Below, one piece after another: positions 10,221-64,000 of a stretch of 64,000 nucleotides of DNA. The number at the start of each line of letters is the position of its first letter. Positions within the stretch are counted from its first letter, which is position 1. The notes under the pieces are model-generated. The model was not told where the DNA came from and searched no databases. It worked only from the letters and a program-made list of their open reading frames with translations. The stretch is from Leptonemataceae bacterium (GTDB lineage Bacteria > Spirochaetota > Leptospiria > Leptospirales > Leptonemataceae). The translations under genes were made by a program, and so were the position numbers. Where the stretch lies: assembly GCA_965227295.1 (NCBI GenBank), contig OZ245742.1, positions 1,248,001 through 1,312,000 of the forward strand, given 5' to 3'.

Positions 10221-10242
10221 AGCTCATAAATTGCGTGCGCGA

Positions 10243-10599
10243 TCAATCCCACTCCAGCACGCGTTTACGAATCTCGTACCACATGCCCACGGCGACGACG
10301 ATCAAAAACGGCAGCACGGACACCAGCGAACCGACGCCGAACTCGCGGTACCCCACGGCCCAGGGCAGCAGGAAGATCGTCTCGATGTCGAAGAGCATGA
10401 ACAGCAACGCCACGGCGTAGAACTTTACCGGGAATGGTTTGTGTGGATCGTCGAGCTGGTCCATGCCGCACTCGTACGGTGTGAACTTATTTTTCGAAAC
10501 CAGGCGCGGGCCGAGAAAGGCCGAGAGCGCCAGCCCGCCGACGCCGACCAGCGTGGCGATGAGCATATAGAGACCGAGGGGCAGGTATTCTTCGAGCAT
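10243..10599 (-). CDS. nuoA: NADH-quinone oxidoreductase subunit A
   Basis: PYECG and FDIETIFLLPWA; start placed at ATG 10599. Confidence 0.95.
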   Translation of the reverse strand: MLEEYLPLGLYMLIATLVGVGGLALSAFLGPRLVSKNKFTPYECGMDQLDDPHKPFPVKFYAVALLFMLFDIETIFLLPWAVGYREFGVGSLVSVLPFLIVVAVGMWYEIRKRVLEWD

Positions 10600-10712
10600 G
10601 GCACGGCTTTGCGCCGACGCACGGCGACACTGGCAGTCAATCACAGGATGGGCGACCTGGCCAGTCTTTTCCAGTTTGACGGGACGGTCGTTCGGCGTCG
10701 CATATACCCTGG

Positions 10713-12596: not shown

Positions 12597-12626
12597 GTCG
12601 GTCTAATACGATGAGGATTCATTCCT

Positions 12627-15056: not shown

Positions 15057-15120
15057 AGAGTTCTCTCCCGGCCGCGGGATCGACGTTGACAGAGCCGTTC
15101 CCGAAACCAGAGTTAGACGC

Positions 15121-15798: not shown

Positions 15799-15827
15799 GT
15801 TTTGCCCAGAAGAAACTAACGCGGAAC

Positions 15828-40277: not shown

Positions 40278-40299
40278 CTTTTAACGGGAGTAACTTAGC

Positions 40300-46168: not shown

Positions 46169-46624
46169 TCAGGCACCCCCCTCGTCGAGATGTTCCAGGA
46201 TCGGAACGCGTACGTGGTGTTTGCCGTGATGTGAAATGACCTGGCGGCCCAGATTCTCCGCGCCTTTGCGGTACACCAGGATCGGGCCCTGCAGGTTTGC
46301 GGTCATCTTCTCGGGGCTGTCCTCGGGAATCGTGACGATGGAAAAAATCTCGCAGTCCTCGACCTTTTCGGTGCCCAGGGATTGCAGATCACCGGGGGCC
46401 ACCTGCGGTTTGTAAGCTTCGATGAACAGAGCCGGATCGATGACCACGAAGGCCAGGTTCGGATCGTTTACGGACTGGAGCCACTGAAACGGGCTCTCGC
46501 CGGATTCCGCGAGCATTACGAATTCGTGGAACTCCTGAAAACCGAAGAGACCGTCCGGGAATCGGATCAGCTCTCCGGATTCGACTTCCACTTCGCCGAG
46601 GGCTTTCGTAGTCAACGTTGGCAT
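46169..46624 (-). CDS. fliW: Flagellar assembly factor FliW
   Basis: FPDGLFGF, FQWLQS, MTANLQGP. Confidence 0.95.
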   Translation of the reverse strand: MPTLTTKALGEVEVESGELIRFPDGLFGFQEFHEFVMLAESGESPFQWLQSVNDPNLAFVVIDPALFIEAYKPQVAPGDLQSLGTEKVEDCEIFSIVTIPEDSPEKMTANLQGPILVYRKGAENLGRQVISHHGKHHVRVPILEHLDEGGA

Positions 46625-46656
46625 AAAAGAAAATACTAACCTTTGCGGGAATTACC

Positions 46657-47922
46657 TTAGCGCAGGAAATCCATCAGCTGCGGGCGGATGATGCGCGAGC
46701 CGACGTTCAGCGAGTACTGGTGAATCGTTTCAAGCCACTTAAGATTCATGATGGTCTCCGGGAAATCAATGCCCTCGCTTTCGGCGAGCAGCTCCTGCAT
46801 GTGCCCCTTATCCCAGGCGACGCGTTTGTCGTGTTCTTCCACGCGATTCTGGCGCGCGCCGACCTCGGCGCGATAACGTAACAGATTGTTCAGCGTTTCG
46901 TCGATGTTCGCCAGATCCCGGCCGCCGATTTCGGTGACGTCGCCGGCGAGCAGATCGTCGCGCAGTTTGATCAAAACATCGAAGGAACTCAGACCGGATA
47001 CCCGCGCGGAGTCGGCAAAATTGTTCGGCGGTTGCGAGTCGTCCGCGGAAATCAGCCCGAGATCTTGCAAGACGGTGCTGCCTTCCATATCTTCGAGCCA
47101 GATCTGATGCGGCGACGTGGACGACAGAGAAACAAAGTCCTGGCCGATGATCGACGCTTCCACCTCGAGGTTCGCGGCGTTGATCTTCGCAACGATGTCG
47201 TTGGCCGTATCGCCGGCGGCCACGCGAATTTCGGCGCCGTCGATGCGGAAAACCTGGTCGGTCGTGGCGCGATAGCCGGAGGTATCGGCAGACCCGGTCA
47301 CGGTCATGTTCGTTCCCCACAACGCTTTGTTGCCCGGAAAGTTCACGTCGATGTACTGATCGCGTTCGACCTCACGCAATTGTTTGCCGATGTCGCCGTG
47401 ATAGCGCACGCTTACGATTTGATTCTCTAACGTAACACCGTCGGCACCTTGAATGTTGGCCTGCACCGCTTCGAAGGGCGGGCGCTCCAGGGCGTGACCG
47501 GCGAACAGATAACGACCGGTGGCGTCCCGGGCGTTGCCGAGTTCGATCATGGCGCGCAGGTGTTGATCGATTTCTTTGGCGATGGCGTAGCGATCTTCGT
47601 TCTTTTCGCCGCCGTAGGTTCCGTTCGCACCCTGCACGGCCAGCACGCGGACGCGTTGCAGAATATCGGTAACCCGGGCCATCTCGCCGTCCACCAGGTC
47701 CAGGCGATTCTTTGCGTGCATGAGGTTCGTGTCGAACTGTTCGAGTTCATTGACGCGCGTGCGAAAGTACATTTGGTTTGTTGCAGCGGAAGGATCGTCC
47801 GCCGGCCGGCCGATGCGCCGTCCGGTTGCGAGCTGATCCTGTACTTTGTCGAACTCCCGCTGGTGCCGCTGCGTATTGCGCACCAGTGTGTTGTTTTTCA
47901 TGATATCAGTTATACGCATCAT
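46657..47922 (-). CDS. flgL: Flagellar hook-associated protein 3
   Basis: TGRRIGRPADDP, GRYLFAG, C-terminal LMDFLR. Confidence 0.93.
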   Translation of the reverse strand: MMRITDIMKNNTLVRNTQRHQREFDKVQDQLATGRRIGRPADDPSAATNQMYFRTRVNELEQFDTNLMHAKNRLDLVDGEMARVTDILQRVRVLAVQGANGTYGGEKNEDRYAIAKEIDQHLRAMIELGNARDATGRYLFAGHALERPPFEAVQANIQGADGVTLENQIVSVRYHGDIGKQLREVERDQYIDVNFPGNKALWGTNMTVTGSADTSGYRATTDQVFRIDGAEIRVAAGDTANDIVAKINAANLEVEASIIGQDFVSLSSTSPHQIWLEDMEGSTVLQDLGLISADDSQPPNNFADSARVSGLSSFDVLIKLRDDLLAGDVTEIGGRDLANIDETLNNLLRYRAEVGARQNRVEEHDKRVAWDKGHMQELLAESEGIDFPETIMNLKWLETIHQYSLNVGSRIIRPQLMDFLR

Positions 47923-47997
47923 AAGGTTATCCTAGGATCGATCGTCGTTGCCCCTGGCGCTCTAGCTTCACAAACTCTTTATCTTAAACCCTCGTTC

Positions 47998-48013
47998 CCT
48001 CGGTCCTCGGAGT
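47998..48013. repeat. Single arm of the REP/MITE-like repeat
   Basis: CCTCGGTCCTCGGAGT between flgK and flgL. Confidence 0.75.
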
Positions 48014-48024
48014 AGATTTTTTAG

Positions 48025-49971
48025 TTAAGCACCCATCCGATTGATGATCACTTCCAGCAGTTGATCCATTGTGTTGATCACGCGGGCGCTCGCGTTGTAC
48101 GCGTGCTGGAACTGCACCATGTTCGACATCTCTTCGTCGAGGCTCACGCCCATCACCGACTGACGAAAGTTGTTCAGTGAAACGAGGTCGTCCTTCAAAC
48201 GCAGCGAGGCGTCCGTGGCCGTGCGGGACTCGGTGCCGAGCTTCGCGATCAACGCGTTGTAGAATTCCTCGGCGTTCACCTCGCGGCCGACCATGTGCGA
48301 GTCCTGTTTCAACGACGCCGCGATCAACAGCGCGTTCGAACCGTCGCCGATGCCGCCCGGAGTGTTGTAATCGCCGGTGCCGCCGACGTCCCGGCCGCGA
48401 CCCGCGGCCACGCTGGCCGGATCCCGGCCCACGTCGTCGGAGACTTCCATGTAGGCGGCCGGATGAAAGACCGGCGTCAGCGTAAGGTCTTCCAGCGGCG
48501 CCCGCAGTTTCGAAAGTTCGTTGATGCGCCGGTAGTCGAAGGCCCCGGCCTGTCCGCTACTCTGGAGGACACCGGCATAGCCGACTAACAGCTCGCCGCT
48601 GTCTTCTAAGTGGCGAATCATGAAATTCGTGCGGCGATCACCCTCGGGCAGATCGGCGCGGGTGGCCTTAAACGAAAGCTGGTTGTCGTGGTTCAGGTAC
48701 GCCACGACGCCGGCGCCGGAGTCGTTAATGCGCCCGATGATCTCATCCATAGTTTCGTCGCGGGAGTAGTCGATGCGCACCGGCGAGTTGTTCGGGTCGT
48801 TCTTGTGCAGCGTGATGGTGCCGTCCACGCCGACGCGTTGCGTGGCGTCGATCTCGTTGGTACCGGTCACGCGAAAGAGGGCCGTGACTTCCGCGGAGCC
48901 GTCCTGGTTAAGGTCGAAGTTCCCGGAGGCGTTCTGGATGATGTACGAGCCGCGGGCGTTTGCGGACAGCGGACGCAGGTCAAAGAAGTCTTTGTTCGTG
49001 GTGCCGTTCATGCCGAAGCCGTCGCGGTGCACCTCGTTGACGATGTCGCTGATGTTCAGCGCGAAGGAATCCACGCTGTCGATGCGGTCTACGATGGAAA
49101 CGTCGCGCATCTCCAGCAGGCCGAGCAGCTTGCCGCCGCCGAGTACGATGTCGCGATCGTTGTGCTCCCACAGAACTTTGGCCATGCCCTCGTTCTGCGG
49201 ATCGGGTACGGTCTTTAACTTACGCTGGATTTCACCTTGTACTAAAGCTTGCTCGCCGATGAACACGAACAGTTCGTCGCGGTCGTTGCGCCCCACGCGC
49301 ACGTTCACAATTTTGGAAAGTTCTTCCAGGGCCGCGTCGCGTTTGTCCTTAAGATCGTTGGGCATGTCACCCAGGGCCTCGATCTTCAGAATGCGTTCGT
49401 TGAGATCGCGAATCTGACCGGCCAGAGAGTTGAGGCGATCCACTTCCGTGATTACCTCGCGGTTCGCGCGCTCACGCAAATCCGCGAGCTTGCCGTAGAC
49501 ATCATTGACGCGCGTCGCGAGGGCGCGACCGCGTTCCACGACCACTTCACGATGGGACATGTCCGCCGGAAAGTTGGCGAGCTCCTGCCAGGAGGCCCAG
49601 AAGTTGTTGGAAAGATTTCGCAGCGAGTTGTCGGAGGGTTCGTTGAATACGACCTCCATTTGCTCCAGATAGAGCTGCTTCGTATCCCAGAAATTTTTGT
49701 CGTTCTCCGCGACGATGATTTGATCGTCGTAAAACGCGTCGCGGATGCGTTCGATCTGCGCGACTTGAGCGCCCTGTCCCAACTGCCCTTTGGAGTTGGC
49801 CCGGTTCAGAGACGGGTTGTAGAGCGGGTCCATCGAGGTCATGGTGACCCGCTGGCGCGCGTAGTGTTCGTTGTCCGCGTTTGATATGTTATGGCCGGTC
49901 GTATTCAGCGCGGTCTGATGCGTAAACAGACCCCGCTTGCCGATTTCCAGGCCGCCGAATGTTGATCCCAT
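48025..49971 (-). CDS. flgK: Flagellar hook-associated protein 1
   Basis: [14 protein letters not shown] and [23 protein letters not shown]. Confidence 0.96.
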
Positions 49972-50104
49972 GGCGATCTCCCGGGTGCCGCCTCCGAATC
50001 GGGGCGCACCACCATGCTAGATCCGTCGGCGGAAGAGGAAAAAACCTGAACGGATTTTTAGTTTCGCACTTTACAAATCTCCAGTATGTTCTATTCTCTG
50101 GATT

Positions 50105-50389
50105 ATGTCACATGAGCAGGTCAATCGCATCCTGGCTCAGCACGGCCTCCAGCGCACGCCGTACACGGGCTGGCTGGCGAACCCCGCGGGCGGCCCCGAA
50201 TCCGCGATCTATGCGGGCGTCGACAGTCACGGCCGGCATTTCTTCCTGAGTTCCGGCGGTGCCACCCTCGCCACGTACGGCGAATTCGCCCGCGGCCGGG
50301 AAGTGACCATCCGTTCTCCCGAGGGCGGTAGCGATTTCAGTGTATGTCTGTTTACGCTGTGGATGCTGCTCGGCGAAACGGCGGCTTAG
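50105..50389 (+). CDS. Hypothetical protein
   Basis: 94-aa ORF with genome-typical codon usage, divergent from flgK. Confidence 0.5.
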   Translation: MSHEQVNRILAQHGLQRTPYTGWLANPAGGPESAIYAGVDSHGRHFFLSSGGATLATYGEFARGREVTIRSPEGGSDFSVCLFTLWMLLGETAA

Positions 50390-50449
50390 GTCTTGAATGA
50401 TTTCTCGCCCTGTGCACAGTTGGAGAGGATGGTTTGATGGGACGGTCCT

Positions 50450-51415
50450 CTATCTCCGGGACAGAATTTTCGCGATCCGATTGACGAGATATTGATCGAA
50501 GTCCGGGTGATTGGCGATTTCAAAGAGTTCGGCTCTGCCAGCGATATGCATTCTGAAGGATGCAAGGAACTCCTGCAAACTATCGGGCTTGCTACTGTTT
50601 ATATATCCGATAATACCGTTTATTGATTGTATTGCCTTGCGGGCTCGCTCCTCGGGGTAGAAATTATACACTATGCCTTCCAGGATCTCTTTCGGGTCCT
50701 GGCCGGTCGGCGGGATCGGCGACTCTTCGTAGGATCCAAATCTCCAGAAATAGACATCGTAATAGATGGATTCTATAATGTCGTGATCGGATGAAAACTC
50801 AGAATAATATCCAGGATCTAAGAACTCGCGATCTCTCTGGATATAGCACTGGGTCCCGGGCGAGCGAAAATTACCGATGATCCGTTTCGTCTTGTCCGCG
50901 ACAACGATCAATACCCCGGAAGGAAGTTCTCTGTAGAGCGCGATAACCGCGGCATGCAGCGAAATTCCGGCCTGTTTCTGAATCGTTTCCAATGCGGATC
51001 GCAGGTTTTCTTTTGCGAGACCCTGAATCCATTCCAGTGGCGCCAGCAATTCAGAAGCGAATCGATTTGCTTCCGCCTCCATAGCGTTATATATGTGCGC
51101 ATTGCCGATGTGGTTCCACGAATCGGTGTGGCAGCAAATCGTGCCGACGTGCCAGGGGATGAATAAGTGTCCGAGTTCGTGGGCTATTGTGAAGCGCTTT
51201 CGTGTTCTTGGAATGGTCGTATTGAGAATGATCTCCGGTTTCTCGTGACCCGTGTCTGCGCCGACTATGATCGCGTCGACATGGAAGGGAATAACGATCT
51301 CCTTGATCCTTGCGAAGCGGCGTGCGAAAGCAAAGATATCGACCGCTCGATTGTACTGGTATCTTTCCCGGACTCTCCTTGCGATAGCAAGTTCCGCCCG
51401 TAAATCAGTATCCAT
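50450..51415 (-). CDS. ImmA/IrrE family metallo-endopeptidase with C-terminal extension
   Basis: RKRFTIAHELGH (HExxH) and EAEANRFASELL. Confidence 0.9.
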   Translation of the reverse strand: MDTDLRAELAIARRVRERYQYNRAVDIFAFARRFARIKEIVIPFHVDAIIVGADTGHEKPEIILNTTIPRTRKRFTIAHELGHLFIPWHVGTICCHTDSWNHIGNAHIYNAMEAEANRFASELLAPLEWIQGLAKENLRSALETIQKQAGISLHAAVIALYRELPSGVLIVVADKTKRIIGNFRSPGTQCYIQRDREFLDPGYYSEFSSDHDIIESIYYDVYFWRFGSYEESPIPPTGQDPKEILEGIVYNFYPEERARKAIQSINGIIGYINSSKPDSLQEFLASFRMHIAGRAELFEIANHPDFDQYLVNRIAKILSRR

Positions 51416-51736
51416 CTATTTCAAATGACCGGACTGCTTTAACCAGTCGAATAAGCTCCTGGCTTCCTCTGGAGAGGCCGCACGGGCTGCGATTTGCTGG
51501 CCACTATGTTGATGAACAATATCGTCGAAGGGGATGCCGTTTTGTCGTGCGAAGAGAATGTAACGCAGGAAATCCGGCCGTTCCACCCAGTAACCGTACT
51601 CCATCTCATTCATACCGAGAAACTCGTGCAGCTTAAGACTGGAGTCGGATTCGTGCCACTCGTCAATTGCGTCATCGATTTCATCGGCCAAAAAGCGGCC
51701 TTCCAGGCAGGATTGTACGAAATTTTTATACATCAA
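51416..51736 (-). CDS. Small acidic protein, candidate immunity protein/antitoxin
   Basis: Overlaps the toxin stop and abuts the protease start; DEIDDAIDEWH..LHEFLGM. Confidence 0.6.
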   Translation of the reverse strand: MMYKNFVQSCLEGRFLADEIDDAIDEWHESDSSLKLHEFLGMNEMEYGYWVERPDFLRYILFARQNGIPFDDIVHQHSGQQIAARAASPEEARSLFDWLKQSGHLK

Positions 51737-51956
51737 GAGTCCTCCCTTTCACAGCTTCTTTGATAAAATGCCCTGTGATCGCGTCCAGGCTGCCCAGGTG
51801 CTTTCCCCTTTTGTTAAAGGCTTCTATTTCTCCGTGCTGAGAATCCCACGTAAAATAACGATCATGGCGGGGGGAGCGCCAGACCTTCCGCCCCTCTCGA
51901 ATGCCGAAATACTCGCAGTTCGTAAAAAGAAAGCAATTATCCGGCGGTACGCGCAA
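51726..51956 (-). CDS. Stand-alone colicin E3-like ribonuclease domain
   Basis: RYFTWDSQHGEIEAFNKRGKHLGSLDAITG closely resembles the colicin E3 cytotoxic motif YEWDSQHGELEGY..GQHLGSFDPKTG; TTG start. Confidence 0.8.
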   Translation of the reverse strand: MRVPPDNCFLFTNCEYFGIREGRKVWRSPRHDRYFTWDSQHGEIEAFNKRGKHLGSLDAITGHFIKEAVKGRTLDV

Positions 51957-52148
51957 AATAGACCAGAGTCCCCGGGGTACAAGCGTATTTTTTGACCCCT
52001 TGTACCATCACCGCGACATATTTTCTCAAAAAGTGACGGGCGGATGAATTGTACCAGTGCTTTTTTGAATTTTTCTCAAACTCCCGCGCCCCTCGTACCA
52101 CCATGGAAAAACAATTGCCGCAAAGCCCGCCCCGGGATTCCGGAGCAT

Positions 52149-55745: not shown

Positions 55746-57452
55746 GTGCAATCGGATGGCAATGAAAAAAAACCGGCGCCGGATTCCCGCGTGAATCTGG
55801 CGCACACTGTATTGAGAGATGCGCTCGATGCAAAAGGTTTCGCCGAATTTACCGTTCGGGGCGAAAGCATGTATCCGTTGCTTCGTCCCGGGATGACGAT
55901 CCGCGTTGTTCGCTGTGCGGAGAAAGATCTGCGCGTGGGAGACATCATCATCTTCCGCAGCCGCGACGATCTTCTGGCACATCGAATCGTCGCAAAGCAT
56001 GGCTCCTCCCTCTGGATCGCAAAAGGGGATAATACCTTCATTTCGGACGACCCCGTCGCTTTCGAGGAGATCCTCGGCCGGGTCATCGCCGTCGCCGGGG
56101 AGGAGTACATCTACGGTTCTCGCGACGTGATGCTTGCGCGGCTCTCGCACCGTCAGGGTCGCATCGTTTCCGAACTGCGTTCTCGCAGCGAACGCCGACG
56201 ATCGTCGACCGGCCGGCGCGTGAAACGCGAGAACGTCCTGGCCTGGCCGCTGCGCCTGGCGTTGCGTCCGTATCTGTGGTTGGTGCGTCTCATCGCGGCC
56301 GGACATCCGAACCGCGACGGCGGGCGCCTGCCCATGGACGACACAGTCGACATACATCCGGGCACGCTGCAAATGGTTCGCCGTCGTGCCGCGGTCGCCG
56401 GCCGGCCCGCCACGGATTTGAGCTGGGTCGCCGTGGATCCGTTGATCGGTTTTCTGGGCGATGCGTTGCGAACTTCACCGCCGCGACCGGAACGCCTGGC
56501 GAAGTACATGCAGACCTGGAACGCCGCGGTGCGGGCGCTGCGTTGCCTGGCGGACGCAAACATTCAGACAATCATCTTTAAGGGCCTGGTCTTCGCGGAA
56601 GAACTCTACGACAGCCCGTTGCATCGTCCCATGCGTGATGTGGATTTGCTCGTGCGCCCGGACGACTTCGCGGCGGCGTGTCGCTGTTTGTCGGCCGCGG
56701 GTTTTATGATTCATGACGACTTTCCGGAGCGGCGCCCCCATGCGGTTTCGGACGCGGAAGTTTTCCCGGCGGATGCGTGGGCGCCGGGAGAGCTGACCTT
56801 CGTCGATGAGCGCGGAGTGGAGATCGATCTGCACTGGCATCTGATTCCGGAACACTGGCTACGCCCATGCCGTAACATACTTTTAGATGAAGTCTGGCGA
56901 GACGCTCGCCCCTTTCAATTCGAAGGCGGCAGTGTCTGGACCATGAGTGACGTACATACGGCCGCGTACCTGACGTTGAATCTGAGCCGCAACGCTTATC
57001 GTTCTTTATTCGCGTACCTGGATCTGGATCGATTGTGGCGCCGGCAGGGCCGTGACTTCGCGCAAGAGTTCTTCGATACGTGTCGGCGCTGGCGCATTCG
57101 CATCGCCGCGGATTATGCCCTTCGTTACTTGAAGTATTTGTGCGACACTCCGGTACAGATTTCGCGGCGACTGCGCCTGCGTCCGGGTCTGCCGCGGCCG
57201 GTTCGTCTCTTAAAAGATTCGCGACGCTGGCGCAGTGACGGTTACATGTACTTCGTGCAACTGGCGACACTGGACCGGCTGCGCGACGCCCTGGGCGTCA
57301 TCGTGCGGTTGGTTCTTCCTCCGCGCGGTTGGTTGCGACGACGCTACGGTGAGCGGGCTTCGTTCGTCCATCACTGGAGGCACGTCTTTCGTGCTTTGAC
57401 GGAACGGCGGACGAACTCAGGGAATGCGGACGGAACCGATGGGACTCGTTGA
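55746..57452 (+). CDS. S24/S26 peptidase fused to a nucleotidyltransferase (NTP_transf_5-like)
   Basis: N-term GESMYPLL..GDIIIF..AHRIV..KGDN; C-term FKG..LY..RPMRDVDLLV..IDLHW. Confidence 0.85.
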   Translation: MQSDGNEKKPAPDSRVNLAHTVLRDALDAKGFAEFTVRGESMYPLLRPGMTIRVVRCAEKDLRVGDIIIFRSRDDLLAHRIVAKHGSSLWIAKGDNTFISDDPVAFEEILGRVIAVAGEEYIYGSRDVMLARLSHRQGRIVSELRSRSERRRSSTGRRVKRENVLAWPLRLALRPYLWLVRLIAAGHPNRDGGRLPMDDTVDIHPGTLQMVRRRAAVAGRPATDLSWVAVDPLIGFLGDALRTSPPRPERLAKYMQTWNAAVRALRCLADANIQTIIFKGLVFAEELYDSPLHRPMRDVDLLVRPDDFAAACRCLSAAGFMIHDDFPERRPHAVSDAEVFPADAWAPGELTFVDERGVEIDLHWHLIPEHWLRPCRNILLDEVWRDARPFQFEGGSVWTMSDVHTAAYLTLNLSRNAYRSLFAYLDLDRLWRRQGRDFAQEFFDTCRRWRIRIAADYALRYLKYLCDTPVQISRRLRLRPGLPRPVRLLKDSRRWRSDGYMYFVQLATLDRLRDALGVIVRLVLPPRGWLRRRYGERASFVHHWRHVFRALTERRTNSGNADGTDGTR

Positions 57453-57902
57453 ACAGGAGTCGGCCGCGTCCGTGTCTGTCGGGCAGGCTTCGTAGAGTTT
57501 CAGGGTGCCCCCGTGTTCCGCGAGCATGCCGGCGGAAACCGTAATCAGAATGGTGTGTCGATCGCCGGCGGCCACTTCCAGTTCCAGCGGCTGGGCGTAC
57601 TCTTCGTCTCCTCGCGGGTTTTGTAAGAGCAGGGGCGCGGGCCGGTCGTCGATCCAGGCGCGGATTTCTTTCAGTAAAATGATTTCATGAAAGCGCCCCG
57701 GGTTCTCCACTTCTATGCGTCCGACTTCCACGGCCGCCGATCGATCCGGCGGCACGGTCACCGCCTGGCGAAACAAGAATCGGGCGCGCGCCCGTCCGTC
57801 GTCTAATGTTGTACCAAAGAATATTAACGCAACAAAGAATGCCGTGATTCCGGCGCTCCAGAGAAGAGCCATTGTAGTCACGGAAGCACGGATGGTACTC
57901 AT
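57417..57902 (-). CDS. Small membrane-anchored hypothetical protein
   Basis: ATG at 57902 overlaps the methyltransferase stop (ATGA); one N-terminal TM. Confidence 0.55.
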   Translation of the reverse strand: MSTIRASVTTMALLWSAGITAFFVALIFFGTTLDDGRARARFLFRQAVTVPPDRSAAVEVGRIEVENPGRFHEIILLKEIRAWIDDRPAPLLLQNPRGDEEYAQPLELEVAAGDRHTILITVSAGMLAEHGGTLKLYEACPTDTDAADSCSTSPIGSVRIP

Positions 57903-58735
57903 GATGCCGCGCCTGTCAGGGCGAAGTGCACCTGCTCGACGGCCGGGGCGAGGGCGCCCTCTTCGACGTCGACAATGTGCAGGCCGGCCGCGGCGAACTC
58001 GGCTTCGACTTCCGCGCGGTTCCGGAAGTAGTGAATGAACTCCACTCGAAAATGATCGCCGGACTGCACGGCCGTGTTGCCGAAGCTCAGGCAAGCGAGC
58101 GCCTTTTTCCACGCCATGAAGCGCCGACCGATCCCCGGGCCGATGTAGGCCGAGAGCACGATCACGCCGGATTCTCGTAACATTCGTTTACACTTTCTTA
58201 AGAGGTCCTCCCGGTGGCGTCGCCCGGGTATGCACGAGTACATGCCCGGAGAAATGATGACAACGTCGTAGAGCGGGGCGTCGGCATCATCCGGAAAGGC
58301 CGCGATGTTTTTGTCGAAAGGAACGACGCCGCGTTCGAAGTGAGCGCGGTCACCGAAACTCTGCGTATTTTGCCGCGCGCTTTCGAGGATGGCCGGGATG
58401 CCCTCGACGCCGGTGACGTGAAAGCCATGGTCGAGGAGCACCAGGGCCTCCCGGCCGCCGCCGCAAAAAAGGTCCAGGGCTTGCGGCGGCGCGGACTTGC
58501 TCCGGCCCCGGGCAATGGGAAAGACCCGGCGTTCGTACATAAGCCGTTCGCCCTCGGAAAGAAAACCGCTCCGATTCATGGCCGGCCCCTGCCAGACCGC
58601 GGCATGGCCGCTGTAGAGTCCGGCGCTGAACCGGGAGAGCCGGTCCGGTGGTAGAATGCAGAGCGTGGTCACGTCGACGGCGTTGCGGACGACGGTGGCG
58701 ATCTTGCGTAGAATGCGTACCAGAAGAATCTTCAT
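57899..58735 (-). CDS. Class I SAM-dependent methyltransferase
   Basis: ALDLFCGGGRE, VTGVE, YDVV. Confidence 0.88.
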   Translation of the reverse strand: MKILLVRILRKIATVVRNAVDVTTLCILPPDRLSRFSAGLYSGHAAVWQGPAMNRSGFLSEGERLMYERRVFPIARGRSKSAPPQALDLFCGGGREALVLLDHGFHVTGVEGIPAILESARQNTQSFGDRAHFERGVVPFDKNIAAFPDDADAPLYDVVIISPGMYSCIPGRRHREDLLRKCKRMLRESGVIVLSAYIGPGIGRRFMAWKKALACLSFGNTAVQSGDHFRVEFIHYFRNRAEVEAEFAAAGLHIVDVEEGALAPAVEQVHFALTGAAS

Positions 58736-58759
58736 AGAATTCGATGAGTGCGTTCGTTT

Positions 58760-60967
58760 TCAAAACGGCCGCACGAAACCTTTCTCCCGCAGCCGGAACG
58801 GATCGAGCCGTTCCGCGTTCTTTTTATGATTCGTGACAGCGTCCGCCGACAGGCCGATCTCCGCGCCGATTTGCGCGAGGCGTGCGTGACAGTGCGCTGC
58901 CGTAACTTTCCAGGAACTACAGTTACGAAAAAGTTCCGCCGCCGCGTGTAAATCCTGTTCCGCGGCCGGACTTGCGACGGCAAGGTGGCGGGCCCGGAGC
59001 AAATGGCTTTCGCCGGCCAGGTTTTCCAGTTCGGCGTCCGCAGGATACAACGTGCGCGCCCACCGGAGCCACGGCAACGCCGAATCCACGGCGGCCGCAA
59101 CCGCCGCGGGGTCTCCGGAACTTTCGGGATTCCGGGGTTTGAGTACCCACACGAGCCAGGCGTTCTTATGTCGATACGGCTCCAGTGCCTCCAGTGCCTG
59201 CTCGCGCGCAAAGACCGCGAAGCCATGATACGTGACACCGACGCAGAGGATGAGTGCGGCCACGGCCGGCCAGGTATTTCGGGGCGCAGGCGACGGCATT
59301 GGATCCGCATCCTGTTTCGATGAAGGCAATGCCAGAAGGACGGCTAACGCTACGAGCACCATGGCCGCATAGAACGGCTGAATGAAATGATAGTTCATAA
59401 GACCCTGGAGCAGAAACGAAACGAGGGCCGTGCCCGCGGCGAGGGCCAGTGTGCCTGGCAGGCCCGGGACGAATAGACTGCGCCGGGCCGACTCGATCGC
59501 GTAGGCCGTGAGAAAGAGGATCAGAGCGGCGAAGGGGATGCCTGCATCGAGGCACAGTTGCAGGAGCAGGTTGTGTGCGTGCAGTCCGGCTCCCTGCATA
59601 CGGTAGTCGTGGGCAAGATGATAGAAGCCCGCGCCGCGGAGATCCGGTATCGGCATCGCGGCCAGCACGGAGTAGTGATTCGCGCCCGTGCCGAACAACG
59701 GTACTTCGGCGATTGCATTCAGGGCCAGTGTCCATAAAGCGAATCGCTGGCGTAATGTCGTAAACAAAAAGAAGTCCGGGTCCGTGCTGCGATCTTTCAT
59801 GAACCACAACCAGACCACAACGCCGGCCATCAGCGCGAGAACGCCCGCACCCACGAAAACGATGCGCCGATGGGAACGGGCGGAATCCGGCTTAGATTCT
59901 TCTGAGTGTAATCTTACAAATGCGAGGGCGAACAGAAAAACCGCGATCGCCATTCCGCTGAGGTACGCGAAGCGCGCGGCCGTTGTTATGAGTAAAAAGC
60001 CCAGAACCGGGACGATCCCCAGGGCGACGCCCATGCCGATCCGGTGCGCAAACTTTTCGGTTTGCGGGCCGTGCTTCGAAAAGAGTGATCGCAAGATTGC
60101 CGGCACGGCAACGAGCAGGGGCAGCAGGAAAACCAGCCAGCCGCCGGCATCGTTGGAGTTGACGCCGCCCAGGCTGTCCTTCTTGGCAAAGAAAAGATCC
60201 ATTGTTGGAACGCTGCGAAAGAGATGCTGTGCGCCGACTGCGAGCCAGCCCAGGTTCAGCAAGCATACACCGATCCACACCAGCGCCGTGCCTGCCGCAT
60301 CTTCCCGGGCGCGGGCGTACGTAAATAAGAAGAGAAAGACGAGCACAATGCTCAGACCGACGGCCGGTATGCTCTGGTAGTAGTTGGGCGCTACCAGGCC
60401 GGCGATGACAAACCACAGCCAGGCCGAGCCCCCGGCAATCAAGAAGACCGGATGCCGCCGCCGCAAACTTTGTAGAACCTTTTGAAGATCGTCGGCGTAC
60501 TCTACGCCGAGGTACGCCGCGGCACAGACCAGCGGCAGGATGCCGCCGGGGTTCCAAACGTAGACCCACAAGAACGGAAACGATAAGAACCAGAGCAACG
60601 TCGCCAGAGCGACCATCCGCGGCGGAACCCCGCGCCAGATCGCGATTAACATTAGAAAAAAGTAAGCGTAGAACCAGAACCGGTGATAGAACCGCAGGCC
60701 CGTTATGCCGGTATCGATGTAAATCGACGCGGCCCGGACCGCCGTGACAAAAACCAACAGTGCGCCAAGACATGCGATAGCGGCGAATGCGTCTCGTCTG
60801 TTTTGATGAGATTGTTCGCCACCGAAGTAGCGTGCACCTGCCAGAGAGACGAGCAAGATCCCCAGGGTAGGCCACAGGAGTTCTCGTACAAAAGTGTACT
60901 GAACGCCCGCGGACAGGCCGCTGCAGAGCAACACGGCCAGAATCAATATCCGAAGGGCCCACATCAT
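58760..60967 (-). CDS. O-antigen ligase (Wzy_C) family membrane protein with TPR-like C-terminus
   Basis: RFALW..PLFGTG..HAHNLLLQLCLDAG; many TMs. Confidence 0.82.
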   Translation of the reverse strand: MMWALRILILAVLLCSGLSAGVQYTFVRELLWPTLGILLVSLAGARYFGGEQSHQNRRDAFAAIACLGALLVFVTAVRAASIYIDTGITGLRFYHRFWFYAYFFLMLIAIWRGVPPRMVALATLLWFLSFPFLWVYVWNPGGILPLVCAAAYLGVEYADDLQKVLQSLRRRHPVFLIAGGSAWLWFVIAGLVAPNYYQSIPAVGLSIVLVFLFLFTYARAREDAAGTALVWIGVCLLNLGWLAVGAQHLFRSVPTMDLFFAKKDSLGGVNSNDAGGWLVFLLPLLVAVPAILRSLFSKHGPQTEKFAHRIGMGVALGIVPVLGFLLITTAARFAYLSGMAIAVFLFALAFVRLHSEESKPDSARSHRRIVFVGAGVLALMAGVVVWLWFMKDRSTDPDFFLFTTLRQRFALWTLALNAIAEVPLFGTGANHYSVLAAMPIPDLRGAGFYHLAHDYRMQGAGLHAHNLLLQLCLDAGIPFAALILFLTAYAIESARRSLFVPGLPGTLALAAGTALVSFLLQGLMNYHFIQPFYAAMVLVALAVLLALPSSKQDADPMPSPAPRNTWPAVAALILCVGVTYHGFAVFAREQALEALEPYRHKNAWLVWVLKPRNPESSGDPAAVAAAVDSALPWLRWARTLYPADAELENLAGESHLLRARHLAVASPAAEQDLHAAAELFRNCSSWKVTAAHCHARLAQIGAEIGLSADAVTNHKKNAERLDPFRLREKGFVRPF

Positions 60968-61031
60968 AAAAAAAACATAGTGATTTAATCAAACGGTGTG
61001 CGTAAATATGATTTATAGTTGACGTTCACTC

Positions 61032-61391
61032 ATGGCCGGTGTCACTTTCGCACTCATGACTGAAACACAGAATCGCCCTCCGGAAAGTCAGGGCATCGCC
61101 ATTACTGAGGAGACTCGATTTCAAGCGCACGAAGATCTTTCGTGGCGTGAAATCGAAGGACAAATGGTTTGCATGAACCTGAAGTCCGGCGAGTACTTTA
61201 CGTTCAACGGAGTCGGCCGGGAAATCTGGCAGGCTGTTGCGGACGAGCGCGGTAATACGCGGGACATCGTCGCGAAGATTGTAAGTGAGTATGCGGTCGA
61301 AGAAAGTGTTGCGCAAAAGGATAGTAAAGAATTCTTAAGAAACTTGCTGGAAGCCGGTTTGATTCGGCCTGTGGATAGTCAACAAAATTGA
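61032..61391 (+). CDS. PqqD-family RiPP recognition element (RRE)
   Basis: WREIEGQMV..GEYFTFNGVGREIW..IVSEYAV....A..D...FL..L.EAGLI; start could be 61056. Confidence 0.92.
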   Translation: MAGVTFALMTETQNRPPESQGIAITEETRFQAHEDLSWREIEGQMVCMNLKSGEYFTFNGVGREIWQAVADERGNTRDIVAKIVSEYAVEESVAQKDSKEFLRNLLEAGLIRPVDSQQN

Positions 61392-61432
61392 TGAATCGTT
61401 CATCGACGACAGTTTAACTTTCGAGGGTAACT

Positions 61433-61585
61433 ATGAAAAACGAAAAGAAAAAGTATGAGTCGCCGTCACTGGAAAGCCGGAATGGCGGTAAAGACTACGC
61501 CGCTCCGACGTTCGAGCGCCACAATCCGCTCAACGAAGTGTCGGCAACCTACTACTATACGTACTACTACTATTACTACTACTGA
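61433..61585 (+). CDS. Putative RiPP precursor, 50 aa, poly-tyrosine core (below the ORF-track size cutoff)
   Basis: GAGGG RBS at 61423-61427; MKNEKKKYESPSLESRNGGKDYAAPTFERHNPLNEVSATYYYTYYYYYYY; fills the gap between the RRE and kinase genes. Confidence 0.88.
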   Translation: MKNEKKKYESPSLESRNGGKDYAAPTFERHNPLNEVSATYYYTYYYYYYY

Positions 61586-61594
61586 GAGAAAGCG

Positions 61595-62680
61595 GTGATC
61601 GGGTTACCGGGGCTTCCCATCGAAGTAGCCGGCCCGCCTTCTCCGGTGCGGGATGCAGTCGAAGCGGCTTTCGGCTTCTGCGCATTTCGAAATAGTAGCG
61701 ATACAAATCACATACGGCTGGAGGTTCGTTTTCTCGATAGCGAGTCCGAATCTCTGGCGGCCCGGGTTCCGGGATTCCTGAGCGCCCGCGTGGCGCTTCT
61801 GGAGCAGGAGCCTTCGCCCGTGTCCTCCGGTCTGGCTTACGTCAGTGAAGGGGGCAGCCGGCAGGGTTCCGGAACCGTCCTTGCAGATCCGCATTCCATA
61901 TGCGCGGCCTGGAGCGACTCCGCAGAGTCGCTGTCCTTATACGTCCGCAAGCGACGGCCAGAACCGGGCCTTTTGCCGTCCGTGCAAGCCCTGCTGATCC
62001 CCCTGCTGCGCGACCTTCTCCTTCGAAGAGATGCCTGTCTCCTTCATGCAGGCTCGGTCCGCACGCGGAACGATGAGGGATTGCTGGTCCTCGGAGATAA
62101 TGGAGCTGGAAAGACTACGGCCGTTCTGGCGCTGGCCCGGGCGGGAGGAGCCTTGCTTGCCGACGATCTGAACGTTTTGCGCAGGGCCGAGAGCGATGCT
62201 CGCCCATCGTTTGAAATCTGCGCGGTCCCGGAAGCGATCAATCTGACCGAGGACGAGAACACGGCGCGCTTTTTTCCGGAGCTGGCCGGTAGTCTGGGGC
62301 GAGCCCGGCCGGAGAACGATCGGCCGAAGGTAGCGGTTGCGCCCGATGAAGTCCTGCAACGACTCGGGGCGACGTCACGAACGGATCGTTGCTTCGCGAA
62401 CGGAGTTTTGATTCTGGATATCACGCCGGAGACTCCGTCCGCGTCGGAACGATTCGAAAGACTGCCGGCAGCACAGGTGTTGCCGTTGCTCCTGCGGGCC
62501 AACGTCTTCGCCGGTGGACAATCACCGGGAGCGGCCTTCGCAAATCTCGCGGAGTTTGTGGAAACCGTTCCGGGATACCGTGTGCGCACGGGGCCCGACC
62601 CGGCTGAAATGGCCCGGGAGATCTTGAACTACTTTGGGCATACACACGTAGCCGGGAGCATTCCCGGAGGGAGAGCATAA
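61595..62680 (+). CDS. HPr-kinase-related P-loop kinase
   Basis: LLHAGSV..GDNGAGKTT..LLADD. Confidence 0.87.
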   Translation: MIGLPGLPIEVAGPPSPVRDAVEAAFGFCAFRNSSDTNHIRLEVRFLDSESESLAARVPGFLSARVALLEQEPSPVSSGLAYVSEGGSRQGSGTVLADPHSICAAWSDSAESLSLYVRKRRPEPGLLPSVQALLIPLLRDLLLRRDACLLHAGSVRTRNDEGLLVLGDNGAGKTTAVLALARAGGALLADDLNVLRRAESDARPSFEICAVPEAINLTEDENTARFFPELAGSLGRARPENDRPKVAVAPDEVLQRLGATSRTDRCFANGVLILDITPETPSASERFERLPAAQVLPLLLRANVFAGGQSPGAAFANLAEFVETVPGYRVRTGPDPAEMAREILNYFGHTHVAGSIPGGRA

Positions 62681-64000
62681 ATGAACGCAAGCGCGGAGAA
62701 CACAGCACAGTCCTGGCCGCAAATGGAAGCCCTGCAGCGTCTCATGCGAGTCAGATCGCTGTTGCAAGACGGGCTGTCTTCGCTACCGGCCCTGATCGAC
62801 ATCCTGGCCGGCGACGATCCCACCGCGGCGGCCGAGGCGCACCAGGGTTTGATGGGCATGCTCCCGCTGGCATCCCTCTATGAACGGCGGCCCGAGGATT
62901 TTGTCGTCGCGGATGCGGACGAAATTCGCGCACCGATCCCGGATTGGCTGAAGGCGTCGTGTGATGGATGGGGGACCACGGAAGACTTCGCCTCTTTATG
63001 CGTGGAGCGTCTTGCGGAATTCCGCACCGGAGCACCGGAGCGTGCTCGCGTATTGCTGGAGCGCCTGGTAAACTTCTGGGGTATTCGGCGCCGGCTGGCC
63101 GAACTGCTCGAGGCGCGCGGTTTGAGCGATCTGCGCCGGACGTACGAAGAACTCATCGTCGAGACGGATGACATTCATTTTCCCGAGCAGATCTGCCTTT
63201 CGCCGACCCAGGCCTGTCAGCTCAAATGTTCGTTTTGTTACTCCGCGGATCTTCCTAATGTACACAAAGATGATATTAGCGACTCGAAGACACTTGAGCT
63301 GCTCGACTGGATGCATTCTAAGAACATTAAGCGTCTGAGTTTCGCCGGCGGCGAGCCCACATTGTTCCGCTACTTTCCGGCGCTCATTCGCAAAGCCGCC
63401 GAATACAAAATGGAAATCTTTCTTACGACGAACGGCCTCATGGCGCCGGCCGTCGTAGACGCGCTCATCGAAGTTCGACCGTTGTGCATCACCATGCATC
63501 TTACCGAAGAGGTTCTGGACGCACCGAAGCTCCTGGCACTCTTCGAACGCAACGCTCGGTCTTTCCTTGACCAGGGCATCTATACGATCATCCGGGCGAA
63601 CTTCATGGAGCCGGAGCAGGACCTGGAGCGCTACTTTCACACGGCGGAGAAACTGGGCATCAAAGAGATTCGTTGCGCCGTGCCCGTTCCCTCCGAACAA
63701 AGCGGTCACGATTACGTGCGCGAAGAGGACATGGACGCCATGGGGCGTTATCTCGGGGACTTCGTCGCCGGCGGGGCCCGGCGCGGTATCAAAACGGTAC
63801 TCAGTAAACCCTTTCCGGTCTGCAAACTTCCGGAGCACGCGGCGAAGGCCTTCCTGGCCAACGGCTCTCTCGGCGTGAATTGTCCGGTCCATCTTACGGA
63901 CTACTCGCACAACATCATGCTGTATCCGGACGGGAGTTTTTCGCCCTGCCTCGCTTTGAATATGAAGAGCGGCACGACCATCTACGATTATGACGGTGTC
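62681..64000 (+). CDS. Radical SAM enzyme with probable SPASM/twitch region (partial; absent from ORF track because no stop lies in the window)
   Basis: Open frame from ATG 62681 to the end; CQLKCSFC at 63215-63238, FAGGEP, TTNG, then NCPV..MLYPDGSFSPC. Confidence 0.92.
   Translation, partial: MNASAENTAQSWPQMEALQRLMRVRSLLQDGLSSLPALIDILAGDDPTAAAEAHQGLMGMLPLASLYERRPEDFVVADADEIRAPIPDWLKASCDGWGTTEDFASLCVERLAEFRTGAPERARVLLERLVNFWGIRRRLAELLEARGLSDLRRTYEELIVETDDIHFPEQICLSPTQACQLKCSFCYSADLPNVHKDDISDSKTLELLDWMHSKNIKRLSFAGGEPTLFRYFPALIRKAAEYKMEIFLTTNGLMAPAVVDALIEVRPLCITMHLTEEVLDAPKLLALFERNARSFLDQGIYTIIRANFMEPEQDLERYFHTAEKLGIKEIRCAVPVPSEQSGHDYVREEDMDAMGRYLGDFVAGGARRGIKTVLSKPFPVCKLPEHAAKAFLANGSLGVNCPVHLTDYSHNIMLYPDGSFSPCLALNMKSGTTIYDYDGV

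Follow-up and report, generated by a model that had tools for sequence, protein, structure and literature searches.

Related peptide systems

Among the systems most similar to the locus studied here are linear polyphosphorylated peptides (LPPs) and lasso peptides of the paeninodin and pseudomycoidin type. LPPs were described by Popov et al. (Nat Commun 2026, PMC13381572). [quoted passage not shown] Their precursors of 35-200 aa have long and variable cores behind a leader with the motif YxxPxVLxHQxIxFETxxS, and Ser at core position 3 is phosphorylated. The kinase LppK failed to phosphorylate a Ser-to-Tyr variant, and the same text contains 0 occurrences of the word "radical" (PMC13381572). In pseudomycoidin, the available part of the source (PMC6993621) states that PsmK phosphorylates the C-terminal Ser and that PsmN is required for the addition of hexose to the phosphate.

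Gene content of the locus

The window, that is, the whole stretch of 64,000 nucleotides analysed here, ends in an operon with a short tyrosine-rich ORF. All genes that the initial annotation had named in this region were recovered in place:

55746-57452, plus strand: fusion protein, 568 aa as listed ORF, with an S26-like peptidase and an NTP_transf_5 domain
57417-57902, minus strand: small ORF without family assignment (ORF listing 57417-58112, shorter start likely)
57899-58735, minus strand: class I SAM-dependent methyltransferase (Methyltransf_25/12/11, E 4e-7 to 3e-6)
58760-60967, minus strand, divergent from the operon: O-antigen-ligase-like (Wzy_C) polytopic membrane protein (Pfam Wzy_C, E 1.9e-11)
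61032-61391, plus strand: discrete PqqD-type RRE (Pfam PqqD, E 1.5e-16)
61433-61585, plus strand: precursor peptide gene, 50 aa, with leader YxxPx4HxP[LI] and Tyr-rich C-terminal core
61562-61582, plus strand: seven Tyr codons, mixed TAC and TAT, followed at once by the stop codon
61595-62680, plus strand: HprK-like (PEPCK-fold P-loop) kinase, by profile, model fold and motifs
62681-64000, plus strand: predicted radical SAM (rSAM) peptide maturase (Radical_SAM, E 4.5e-13)

The precursor ORF is thus placed between the PqqD/RRE gene and the kinase gene, and the rSAM ATG at 62681 immediately follows the kinase stop codon. The rSAM gene (487 aa) ends 144 nt past the window (L003 2681-4144). Retrieval of the downstream sequence, which the initial annotation had proposed, extended the operon by an MsbA-like ABC exporter (MsbA being the best NCBIfam match, E 1.3e-83, under the family cut-off), a B12-dependent rSAM and a metallo-beta-lactamase (MBL)-fold protein. 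This second rSAM lies just outside the window, beyond the view of the initial annotation, and is conserved in relatives. The MBL-fold hydrolase was found at the studied locus only and has a weak likeness to the phosphodiesterase NAPE-PLD (E 0.009). An LtaS-like sulfatase-family gene and the Wzy_C gene adjoin the cluster. The window had been noted to lack a lasso cyclase and a B2 protease; likewise, no Asn-synthase-like or B2 gene was found in the window or within 14 kb downstream, and the AsnB-like genes of this genome are located far from the cluster.

On the minus strand, the ORF listed at 57417-58112 had no Pfam or NCBIfam match and likely starts at an internal ATG at 57902, overlapping the methyltransferase stop codon as ATGA. 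The best NCBIfam match of the methyltransferase was a daptide-type RiPP methyltransferase (30.6 bits versus a cut-off of 175).

A tyrosine-rich precursor and its probable recognition element

The C-terminal end of the 50-aa precursor is TYYYTYYYYYYY, and a GAGGG Shine-Dalgarno-like site is located 6 nt 5' of its ATG. In the 5,938,550-base genome, which has a G+C content of 60%, no frame contains a run of at least five Tyr codons other than the one at 61562-61582, and base composition predicts 0.01 such runs per genome. An alignment of seven precursors showed that K20, Y22, P25, H30 and the Tyr run are invariant, while none of the seven contains an acidic residue after the leader. The core consists of 8-12 residues, is almost pure Tyr and lacks Cys. 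Of the 11 close-family ORFs with a start codon, 10 end in Tyr and one in Ser, and all three poly-Tyr ORFs found beside distant rSAM relatives end in Tyr as well. Two related loci (L006 and L022) encode the same peptide with synonymous TAC/TAT differences. Two precursor leaders weakly matched the NCBIfam model lasso_cyano (E 0.004 and 0.023, under the cut-off).

The PqqD protein had the lasso PqqD chaperone as its best NCBIfam match (E 2.3e-13, under the cut-off). Its closest solved relatives were the lasso B1 proteins TbiB1 (E 2.2e-8), PbaB1 (E 2e-6) and TfuB1 (E 2.6e-5), to which it is nearer in sequence than to LppB (E 0.25). A complex predicted for the RRE and the precursor scored 0.55, where the best of three controls scored 0.02; at least 74% of the contacts were shared between runs and the partner pLDDT was at least 53. 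Of 80 solved complexes, 58 reached the mark used for such predictions, as did 2 of 110 mismatched pairs; among these, seven of the solved complexes and both mismatches had scores of 0.60 or less. Since solved RRE-leader complexes resemble the tested pair, the pass may reflect memorised structures, and the structure prediction lends weak support to the pairing.

Predicted modifying enzymes

Sequence profiles identify the HprK-like protein weakly (Hpr_kinase_C, E 1.3e-3; HprK_rel_A, E 2.8e-5). Its AlphaFold model (pLDDT 79.8) matched ATP-PEPCK and HprK/P folds with E-values of about 1e-7, the P-loop GDNGAGKTT (residue 167) and the motif LLADD (residue 187) are present, and a homologue at a related locus (L028) scored above the Pfam Hpr_kinase_C cut-off (34.2 versus 33.3 bits).

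In the fusion protein, Pfam assigned residues 34-114 to Peptidase_S24 and residues 256-465 to NTP_transf_5 (E 3.1e-35). The peptidase domain matched the NCBIfam model sigpep_I_arch with an E-value of 1.7e-12 (47.5 bits, under the cut-off of 51.85). Its best solved relatives were SEC11A/C (E about 0.01), with whose motifs GESMYP (Ser41), AHRIV (His79) and KGDNT (Asp95) align. The S26-like domain is a candidate leader peptidase, resembling archaeal and ER-type signal peptidase I. A search for close homologues of the fusion returned two matches, itself and one at an E-value of 8e-5, and the peptidase is joined to the NTP transferase in this genome only.

The rSAM contains cysteines that are invariant in eight homologues, namely C179, C183 and C186 (CX3CX2C) and a C-terminal set of seven at positions 381, 401, 423, 464, 467, 475 and 479. 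The Pfam SPASM model did not match, and the enzyme is SPASM-like by its cysteine pattern only. In the structural model (pLDDT 83.5) the first 166 residues form a wholly helical N-terminal domain that is not an RRE. The best Foldseek matches were SuiB (E 7e-12), SkfB, CteB and anSME, with E-values ranging from 7e-12 to 5e-7. The NCBIfam models WgkB, KxxxW, SkfB, PapB, nif11, CbpB, MftC and StsB gave 22-33 bits against cut-offs of 265-650. For the B12-dependent rSAM, the nearest solved relatives were CysS (3e-19) and TokK (3e-17), and the best NCBIfam family was KedN5 (E 2e-35; 122 bits, far under the cut-off of 700).

Conservation in related genomes

Following the suggestion of the initial annotation, the neighbourhoods of rSAM homologues were scanned for short Tyr-rich ORFs. 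Close homologues occur at 19 loci, and a short poly-Tyr coding sequence was present in 12 of 12, a count that covers only those loci whose expected precursor site is in view. This bears out the proposal that the ORF is the precursor of a RiPP-type cluster. Of the 12 sequences, 11 have a start codon as well as a Shine-Dalgarno-like site; the one at L005 has no in-frame start. Beside distant rSAM relatives, a short Tyr-rich ORF with the same leader motif was present at three of four loci. Although close-family rSAMs are only 30-42% identical to that of the window, their loci retain the Tyr core together with K, Y, P and H of the leader. The hosts are distant anaerobic bacteria, Nitrospirota and Desulfobacterales among them. 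Such a poly-Tyr gene, recurring among peptide-modifying enzymes in distant anaerobes, looks like a real family of peptide natural products.

The conserved core comprises the RRE, the precursor, the HprK-like kinase, the SPASM-like rSAM, NTP_transf_5 and the B12-dependent rSAM, usually with an ABC exporter. The two rSAMs are the partners most tightly conserved with the poly-Tyr ORF across three phyla, while envelope genes are not conserved. The RRE gene immediately precedes that of the precursor at all 11 loci where its position is in view, and kinase homologues occur in 13 related loci (24-36% identity). Stand-alone NTP_transf_5 genes recur, and the link between this enzyme and the kinase is underlined by HprK-NTP_transf_5 fusions in L006 and L007. 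The gene set originally proposed was thus retained in part: the RRE, kinase, rSAM and NTP_transf_5 recur, but the methyltransferase, the Wzy_C gene and the small membrane protein gene had no tblastn match at any related locus, which leaves their membership of the cluster unsupported. The NTP_transf_5 half of the fusion recurs while its S26 domain is specific to this genome.

A lasso-type B2 protease is encoded at four related loci (L006, L022, L018 and L064). In L006 and L022, an AsnB-like protein, the B2 protease and a B1 protein are encoded directly upstream of the poly-Tyr ORF; the AsnB-like enzyme scored above the cut-off for glutamine-hydrolysing asparagine synthase and below both lasso-cyclase cut-offs. 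A small third rSAM, a Kdo/WaaP-like kinase and the B2 protease, all present in relatives, are absent from this genome, so pathways may differ between genomes.

Proposed pathway and alternative explanations

We are highly confident that the cluster is a genuine RiPP system and that the 50-aa poly-Tyr peptide is its precursor. The best explanation of the data overall, which we consider likely, is a RiPP gene cluster whose substrate is this peptide with its Tyr-rich core. A seven-step pathway can be proposed, whose outline has about an even chance of being right. The RRE would bind the leader via YxxPx4HxP[LI] and deliver the substrate to the modifying enzymes. The SPASM-like rSAM may act on the aromatic core, crosslinking the side chains of Tyr (or Trp) to adjacent residues by C-C or C-O bonds. 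As the core lacks Cys, a crosslink through carbon or oxygen is its most likely reaction, although it could instead catalyse epimerisation, decarboxylation of the C-terminal Tyr or another reaction. The B12-dependent rSAM, being of the CysS/TokK/KedN5 type, would add one or more C-methyl groups. The HprK-like kinase would phosphorylate a hydroxyl, for which the C-terminal residue is the best candidate, and the NTP_transf_5 domain may attach a further group to the phosphate, as PsmN does in pseudomycoidin. Given that LppK was inactive on the Ser-to-Tyr variant, Tyr phosphorylation by this kinase family has no known precedent (PMC13381572). The leader would be cut by the fused signal-peptidase-like domain here and by the lasso-type B2 protease in other genomes, after which the MsbA-like ABC pump would export a product only about 8-12 residues long.

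A bolder reading, which we put forward tentatively, is that the locus defines a RiPP class whose core, for the first time, is essentially homopolymeric, an oligo-Tyr densely crosslinked and C-methylated by two or three rSAMs. Lasso- and LPP-type kinase and transferase would attach a phosphate-linked cap to the C-terminal Tyr before export. If this were true, the product could have redox activity or promote adhesion on the surface of anaerobes, and the class-defining modification would be new chemistry. The initial annotation knew of no characterised RiPP class with such a core, and our own literature searches likewise turned up no account of a core made of Tyr alone.

Several other explanations were weighed against the favoured one. 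The PQQ and mycofactocin pathways pair a SPASM rSAM with a PqqD-type protein, acting on a Tyr-containing peptide. The poly-Tyr peptide might similarly serve as a scaffold, or be consumed as a donor, for a small molecule derived from Tyr, such as a redox cofactor or signal, its many Tyr residues providing several units from each peptide. The adjacent PqqD protein and SPASM-like rSAM, the prevalence of C-terminal Tyr in close-family and distant ORFs and the weakly NAPE-PLD-like hydrolase of this locus fit such a role. Still, we regard it as improbable: mycofactocin and PQQ rSAM models scored far under their cut-offs (mycofact_rSAM, 23.7 bits versus 265), no mycofactocin or PQQ partner genes turned up when the cluster was scanned with Pfam and NCBIfam, and a leader peptidase with a dedicated ABC exporter suits an exported peptide better. 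Quite improbable, too, is a plain LPP-type system, in which the peptide would be linear and only (poly)phosphorylated and decorated while the rSAMs act on something else, such as a sugar or lipid made by the nearby envelope genes. The locus has each of the five LPP core gene types and a leader motif in register, and it shares the setting among polysaccharide genes described in the available text of PMC13381572, given the adjoining Wzy_C and LtaS-like genes. Against this, both rSAMs, but not the envelope genes, are tightly conserved with the poly-Tyr ORF over three phyla, the rSAM fold is of the peptide-maturase type, no Ser occupies the core position phosphorylated by LppK, and the LPP paper, in its available text, does not use the word "radical".

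It is very unlikely that the product is a non-canonical lasso-type or head-to-tail macrocycle closed via the C-terminal carboxylate by an Asn-synthase-like enzyme. The upstream AsnB-like, B2 and B1 genes of L006 and L022, the B2-like genes of L018 and L064 and the weak lasso_cyano matches point in that direction, but neither enzyme type is encoded in the window or the 14 kb that follow, the seven aligned precursors have no core Asp or Glu for an isopeptide bond, and the L006/L022 enzyme scores as a true asparagine synthase. Finally, an untranslated intergenic (TAY)n simple repeat read as an ORF by chance is an extremely unlikely explanation, which the comparative data contradict. AT-rich genomes in the phylum often carry pure (TAT)n microsatellites; (TAY)7 matched 67 of 401 genomes, and counts for the reversed control pattern were similar. 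The run studied here is, however, the sole one in a 60% G+C genome, combines mixed codons with a Shine-Dalgarno-like site and a conserved leader motif, and recurs in the same arrangement at all 12 assessable related loci. Among 30 loci from the microsatellite scan, 10 had an ORF with at least six Tyr, and none of these 10 contained the leader motif or a C-terminal run.

Comparison with known systems

In its accessory genes and leader, the RiPP cluster we propose resembles LPP clusters as described in the available text of PMC13381572. [quoted passage not shown] On this match, the system is built on a described toolkit and has relatives. It differs in that the FET part of the leader and core Ser3 are absent, the core is Tyr-only, the hosts lie outside Bacillota, and two or three rSAMs are conserved where that text gives LPP none. 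Moreover, LPPs are defined by a linear product with polyphosphorylation as its primary modification and by the lack of further enzymes that modify the core, whereas two conserved rSAMs accompany the precursor here. The expectation of an undescribed class is only partly upheld: the leader motif and accessory enzymes fit the lasso/LPP toolkit, and the Tyr-only core and the rSAMs do not.

Lasso peptides of the paeninodin and pseudomycoidin type, as far as described in the available part of PMC6993621, share the split B1 (PqqD), the HprK-like kinase, the PsmN-like NTP transferase, the ABC exporter and the YxxP leader, and their kinase targets the hydroxyl of the C-terminal residue. That residue is Ser in the lasso peptides, whereas it is Tyr here (Ser in one homologue). 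The locus further differs by its added rSAMs, the lack of a cyclase in the window and a core without the acidic residue (Asp/Glu at position 7-9) needed for the macrolactam. Of the parts of lasso-style leader processing, B1 and YxxP occur here, and B2 is absent from this genome but present at the four related loci.

With SPASM/twitch maturases such as SuiB (streptide), SkfB, CteB and the cyclophane-forming enzymes, the rSAM shares CX3CX2C, a C-terminal auxiliary-cluster Cys region, its fold, a probable RRE dependence and an adjoining precursor gene. In contrast to these, it has an N-terminal helical domain, reaches no curated family cut-off, and its presumed substrate is a homopolymer-like Tyr run without Cys, Lys or known three-residue motifs. 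CysS-, TokK- and KedN5-type enzymes methylate iteratively. The B12-dependent rSAM has their B12-binding and rSAM domains, but while those enzymes act on small molecules, it occurs in a ribosomal-peptide context.

The poly-tyrosine operon

The initial annotation had placed a poly-tyrosine ORF, a PqqD-type protein (RRE), an HprK-like kinase and a radical SAM enzyme (rSAM) in one operon, which we confirmed. Its continuation beyond the window end was read from 18 kb fetched from window position 60001 (L003).

Genes of the operon
61032-61391 (+): PqqD, first gene of the tight operon
61433-61585 (+): 50-aa ORF (precursor), MKNEKKKYESPSLESRNGGKDYAAPTFERHNPLNEVSATYYYTYYYYYYY, with a GAGGG site 5' of its ATG
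61595-62680 (+): HprK-like gene, third in the operon
ATG 62681 (+) to L003 4144: rSAM gene, 487 aa, starting immediately after the kinase stop codon
L003 4152-5903: ABC exporter, 583 aa, without a peptidase domain; best NCBIfam match MsbA
L003 5846-8047: B12-binding rSAM (B12-rSAM), 733 aa as the listed ORF, start uncertain; 3' of the ABC exporter
L003 8060-9550: metallo-beta-lactamase (MBL)-fold protein, 496 aa, last of the operon

The B12-rSAM, which is conserved, thus lies just outside the window, and convergent TPR and HAD genes follow the MBL-fold gene. A Wzy_C gene, a methyltransferase gene and a small ORF point away from PqqD, and a 568-aa signal-peptidase-like/NTP_transf_5 fusion converges on them. 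To the left of the fusion are genes for an LtaS-like sulfatase-family protein and a beta-propeller protein, followed by unrelated flagellar and carbon-transport genes; therefore, we place the left border of the cluster between 52044 and 55746. The flagellar genes upstream of the cluster encode FliW, a flagellin-like protein and FlgK (46169-49971, -), and G+C falls to 0.50-0.53 at 50000-52000, beside an M78 peptidase gene. A DabB-like (Proton_antipo_M) and DabA gene pair at 38781-42786, unrelated to the poly-tyrosine cluster, is probably an inorganic-carbon transporter. In a promoter and terminator scan of 60700-61700, predicted sites were no more numerous than in shuffled sequence.

The short ORF as a precursor gene

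The seven-codon tyrosine run mixes TAC and TAT codons. No other run of at least five tyrosine codons occurs, whatever the frame, in this 5.94-Mb genome of 59.8% G+C, where 0.01 such runs are expected from composition. A Shine-Dalgarno-like site was found in all ten ORFs examined in the window and related loci. Two of these loci, L006 and L022, encode an identical peptide with different tyrosine codons. Across seven aligned precursors, K20, Y22, P25, H30 and the tyrosine run are invariant. The window leader has two YxxP copies, at approximately residues 8-13 and 22-27 (61433-61520), and the other precursors align with the second copy only.

A protein-database search with the 50-aa precursor returned itself alone (one of one candidate), which says little because short ORFs are rarely called. 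When nine precursors were scanned against NCBIfam at E up to 10, seven had no family and two gave sub-threshold matches to the lasso_cyano leader. Scanning the DNA of 401 genomes of the window's phylum for (TAY)7 matched 67 genomes, mostly through pure (TAT)n, and a reversed control pattern gave a similar result. Among the 30 loci returned, 10 had an ORF with at least six tyrosines, none of them precursor-like. Pure (TAT)n microsatellites were very common in one AT-rich family of this sample, with (TAY)7 in 29 of 38 genomes and again a similar reversed control.

Related loci and their distribution

A word-indexed search with the window rSAM found 10 proteins including itself, at 34-41% identity. 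In an exhaustive profile search, 20 cluster representatives scored E 2e-99 or better, with a gap to 1e-77 behind them, and 182 rSAM representatives scored E 1e-30 or better; the enzyme has few relatives. From the ESM Atlas, only an 85-member rSAM cluster was returned.

The close-homologue set comprised 19 loci, the window included; the other 18 came from species genomes (four, L004-L007), metagenomes (11, L018-L028) and a 401-genome sample of the phylum of L007 (three, L064-L066). Loci L008-L010 were left out before any count, as their rSAM matches were weak (27-30% identity over 80-140 residues). Several close loci represent the same or sister lineages, leaving approximately six independent lineages. 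The expected precursor site was in view in 12 of the 19 loci, and all 12 had a short coding sequence ending in a tyrosine run; the seven others (L019, L020, L021, L024-L027) were unscored because their contigs end before the site. Together with three of four loci with distant rSAM relatives, this bears out the expected presence of short tyrosine-rich ORFs near rSAM homologues, and comparative genomics thereby supports the proposal of a conserved RiPP system with a poly-tyrosine precursor.

Precursors in related loci
L004: MQEDVAKNTVTGSENQEIKKTYETPLFKGHPPLMSVSQWYYYYYYYWY
L018: MEKDHEMKVLETKEANSKKKTYETPVLTRHDALDSVSAVTYYYYWY
L007: MKKEYEAPMFVKHDPLESVAAVTYYYYYY
L028: MKKEYEAPMFIKHDPLESVAAVTYYYYYY
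L006 and L022: MKNYEKPIFMKHKAIESAATVYYYYYYY
L023: MKSYEKPVFMKHKAIETAAAYIYYYYYYS
L064: MKKSYVAPQFFKHNPLESVSSTYYYYYYY
L065 and L066: MKKSYVAPQFFKHNPLESVSATYYYYYYY
L016 (distant), tyrosine-rich short ORF: MQKTEEKALKTLSYVKPKTKKHKPVDIVKGSGSLYYYSLYYTYYYYYYY
L017 (distant), tyrosine-rich short ORF: MEQKIKTAYKKPEMTKHEPIKIVQGSGCSGLYYASLYYYY
L015 (distant), 6660-6866 (-): tyrosine-rich ORF, 68 aa, ends YYYYTTYYY

L005 (1-140) contains the same peptide region as L028 with no in-frame start; across a G5A6 run, an ATG is found shifted by one base from the frame. Either an assembly error or a true frameshift may explain this.

Among 401 sampled genomes of the window's phylum, a close rSAM was found only in the window's own. 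Three other genomes of this sample contained distant relatives (E 3e-60 to 2e-39), each with a tyrosine-rich short ORF beside the rSAM (L015, L016 and L017). The leader pattern Y-x2-P-x4-H-x-P-[VI] is kept in L016 and L017. A fourth distant relative, L067, had no tyrosine-rich short ORF within the 9.4 kb in view. The L015 ORF has a signal-peptide-like hydrophobic stretch, then a cysteine and a Tyr/Thr-rich tail at its end, and may represent a variant that is secreted or lipid-anchored. In L016, six rSAM-domain genes, one of them B12-binding, stand in a row 3' of the precursor (7627-17247). Going by record titles, hosts among the related loci include Nitrospirota and Desulfobacterales. In the phylum of L007, 4 of the 401 genomes sampled contained a close rSAM, with L007's own counted; in that of L006, the only one among 351 was L006's own. 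Across the genomes searched, the system occurs rarely and patchily.

Conserved and variable genes

We assessed gene recurrence over the related loci by tblastn and Pfam. A PqqD protein lies directly upstream of the precursor in all 11 loci with this site in view. Also recurring with the precursor are the HprK-like kinase, a 470-520-aa rSAM, a stand-alone NTP_transf_5 protein and a 690-810-aa B12-rSAM. An MsbA-like ABC exporter is present in most loci and is missing between rSAM and NTP_transf_5 in L064-L066. L006 (4545-6701, -) and L007 (18391-20523, +) encode HprK-NTP_transf_5 single proteins of 710-718 aa; fusion in one protein argues that both activities have the same substrate.

Other genes vary. 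Related loci often contain a third rSAM (306-366 aa), some a Kdo/WaaP-like kinase (L006, L007, L018 and L028) or a lasso-type B2 (Transglut_core3) protease (L006, L022, L018 and L064); none of the three was found in the window's genome. In L064, a gene for a CAAX/Rce1-like membrane protease (12362-13105) lies 3' of the B2-like gene; CAAX/Rce1-like proteins often accompany bacteriocin loci. In L006 (6835-9774) and L022 (2695-5720), an AsnB-like gene, scoring above the asparagine-synthase cut-off and below both lasso-cyclase cut-offs, precedes the poly-tyrosine ORF together with genes for a B2 protease and a B1 protein. These Nitrospirota-type loci thus have a lasso-like gene order, yet their core lacks an acidic residue. 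The Wzy_C gene, the methyltransferase and the small ORF, which the initial annotation had counted as cluster members, had no counterpart in the other loci, so that their membership lacks support; the same search found none for the window's MBL-fold protein, nor, by tblastn, for the S26 domain.

Predicted enzymes and pathway

The rSAM contains CX3CX2C (C179, C183 and C186) and seven invariant C-terminal cysteines with SPASM-like spacing; the Pfam SPASM model did not match it, and no curated NCBIfam rSAM family came near its cut-off. In its structural model (pLDDT 83.5), which resembles SuiB, SkfB, BlsE, DesII, ChlB, CteB and anSME, the N-terminal 166 residues are all-helical and not an RRE. For the B12-rSAM, the closest solved structures are CysS and TokK, and the closest NCBIfam family, KedN5, is far below cut-off. 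The kinase model (pLDDT 79.8) matches PEPCK and HprK/P and keeps a P-loop and an Asp-Asp motif, a pair whose equivalent is needed for activity in the pseudomycoidin kinase PsmK (PMC6993621). The best alignment of the peptidase domain is to SEC11A/C, and it retains the Ser, His and Asp motifs.

The accessory kit is that of lasso and linear polyphosphorylated peptide (LPP) systems. We propose that the RRE would guide the rSAM enzymes in aromatic crosslinking and C-methylation of the peptide, after which a hydroxyl, probably C-terminal, would be phosphorylated and further decorated; last, the leader would be removed and the product exported. A methoxy extension, in which the methyltransferase would form O-methyl-Tyr for a CysS-like enzyme to extend, was also considered; with the methyltransferase unconserved, it stays no more than a lead.

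RiPP classes are defined by the action of their enzymes on the core peptide. An almost tyrosine-only core offers radical enzymes only aromatic rings, benzylic carbons and the backbone; therefore, what the conserved SPASM-like and B12-dependent rSAMs do to it is likely to be informative chemistry. The system is a small one that sequence defines completely. It also poses a sharp question for HprK-like kinases, namely their target in a core without serine. Known ones act on serine, and tyrosine was rejected in one test (PMC13381572).

Comparison with LPP and lasso systems

In the literature searched, which thinly covers subscription journals, we found no description of a tyrosine-only RiPP core; the one paper found for an HPr kinase with an rSAM refers to the kinase in lasso clusters only. 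Among described systems, the LPP family comes closest. According to PMC13381572, LPP leaders follow YxxPxVLxHQxIxFETxxS with cleavage after Thr-1, and core Ser3 is polyphosphorylated, a Ser3-to-Tyr variant being unphosphorylated. The poly-tyrosine leaders have Tyr, Pro, a hydrophobic residue, His and Leu/Ile in the same register, and the window peptidase domain is of the archaeal/ER type described there for the LPP peptidase LppS. Thr adjoins the first Tyr in most of the seven aligned precursors, which by analogy would suit a Thr-1 (LPP) or Thr-2 (lasso) cleavage rule. In all seven, the aromatic stretch comes right after a small-residue pattern, [VA]-[SA]-[AQT], which would suit a signal-peptidase-type cut, at Ala39/Thr40 in the window peptide. 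In pseudomycoidin, the kinase target is the C-terminal Ser, and adding hexose to the phosphate requires the NTP transferase (PsmN) (PMC6993621). The last residue of every poly-tyrosine ORF is Tyr, except in L023 (Ser), which may fit a kinase aimed at the last residue's hydroxyl.

Compared with LPP, the poly-tyrosine core is tyrosine-only, without Ser at the phosphorylated position. The rSAM enzymes are its precursor's most faithful partners, and by sequence the window RRE resembles lasso B1 proteins more closely than it does LppB, the LPP RRE. Record titles place related loci in Nitrospirota and Desulfobacterales, whereas PMC13381572 describes LPP as Bacillota-restricted. The poly-tyrosine family thus joins the recognition, kinase and transferase kit of lasso and LPP systems to rSAM maturases and extends this kit outside Bacillota.
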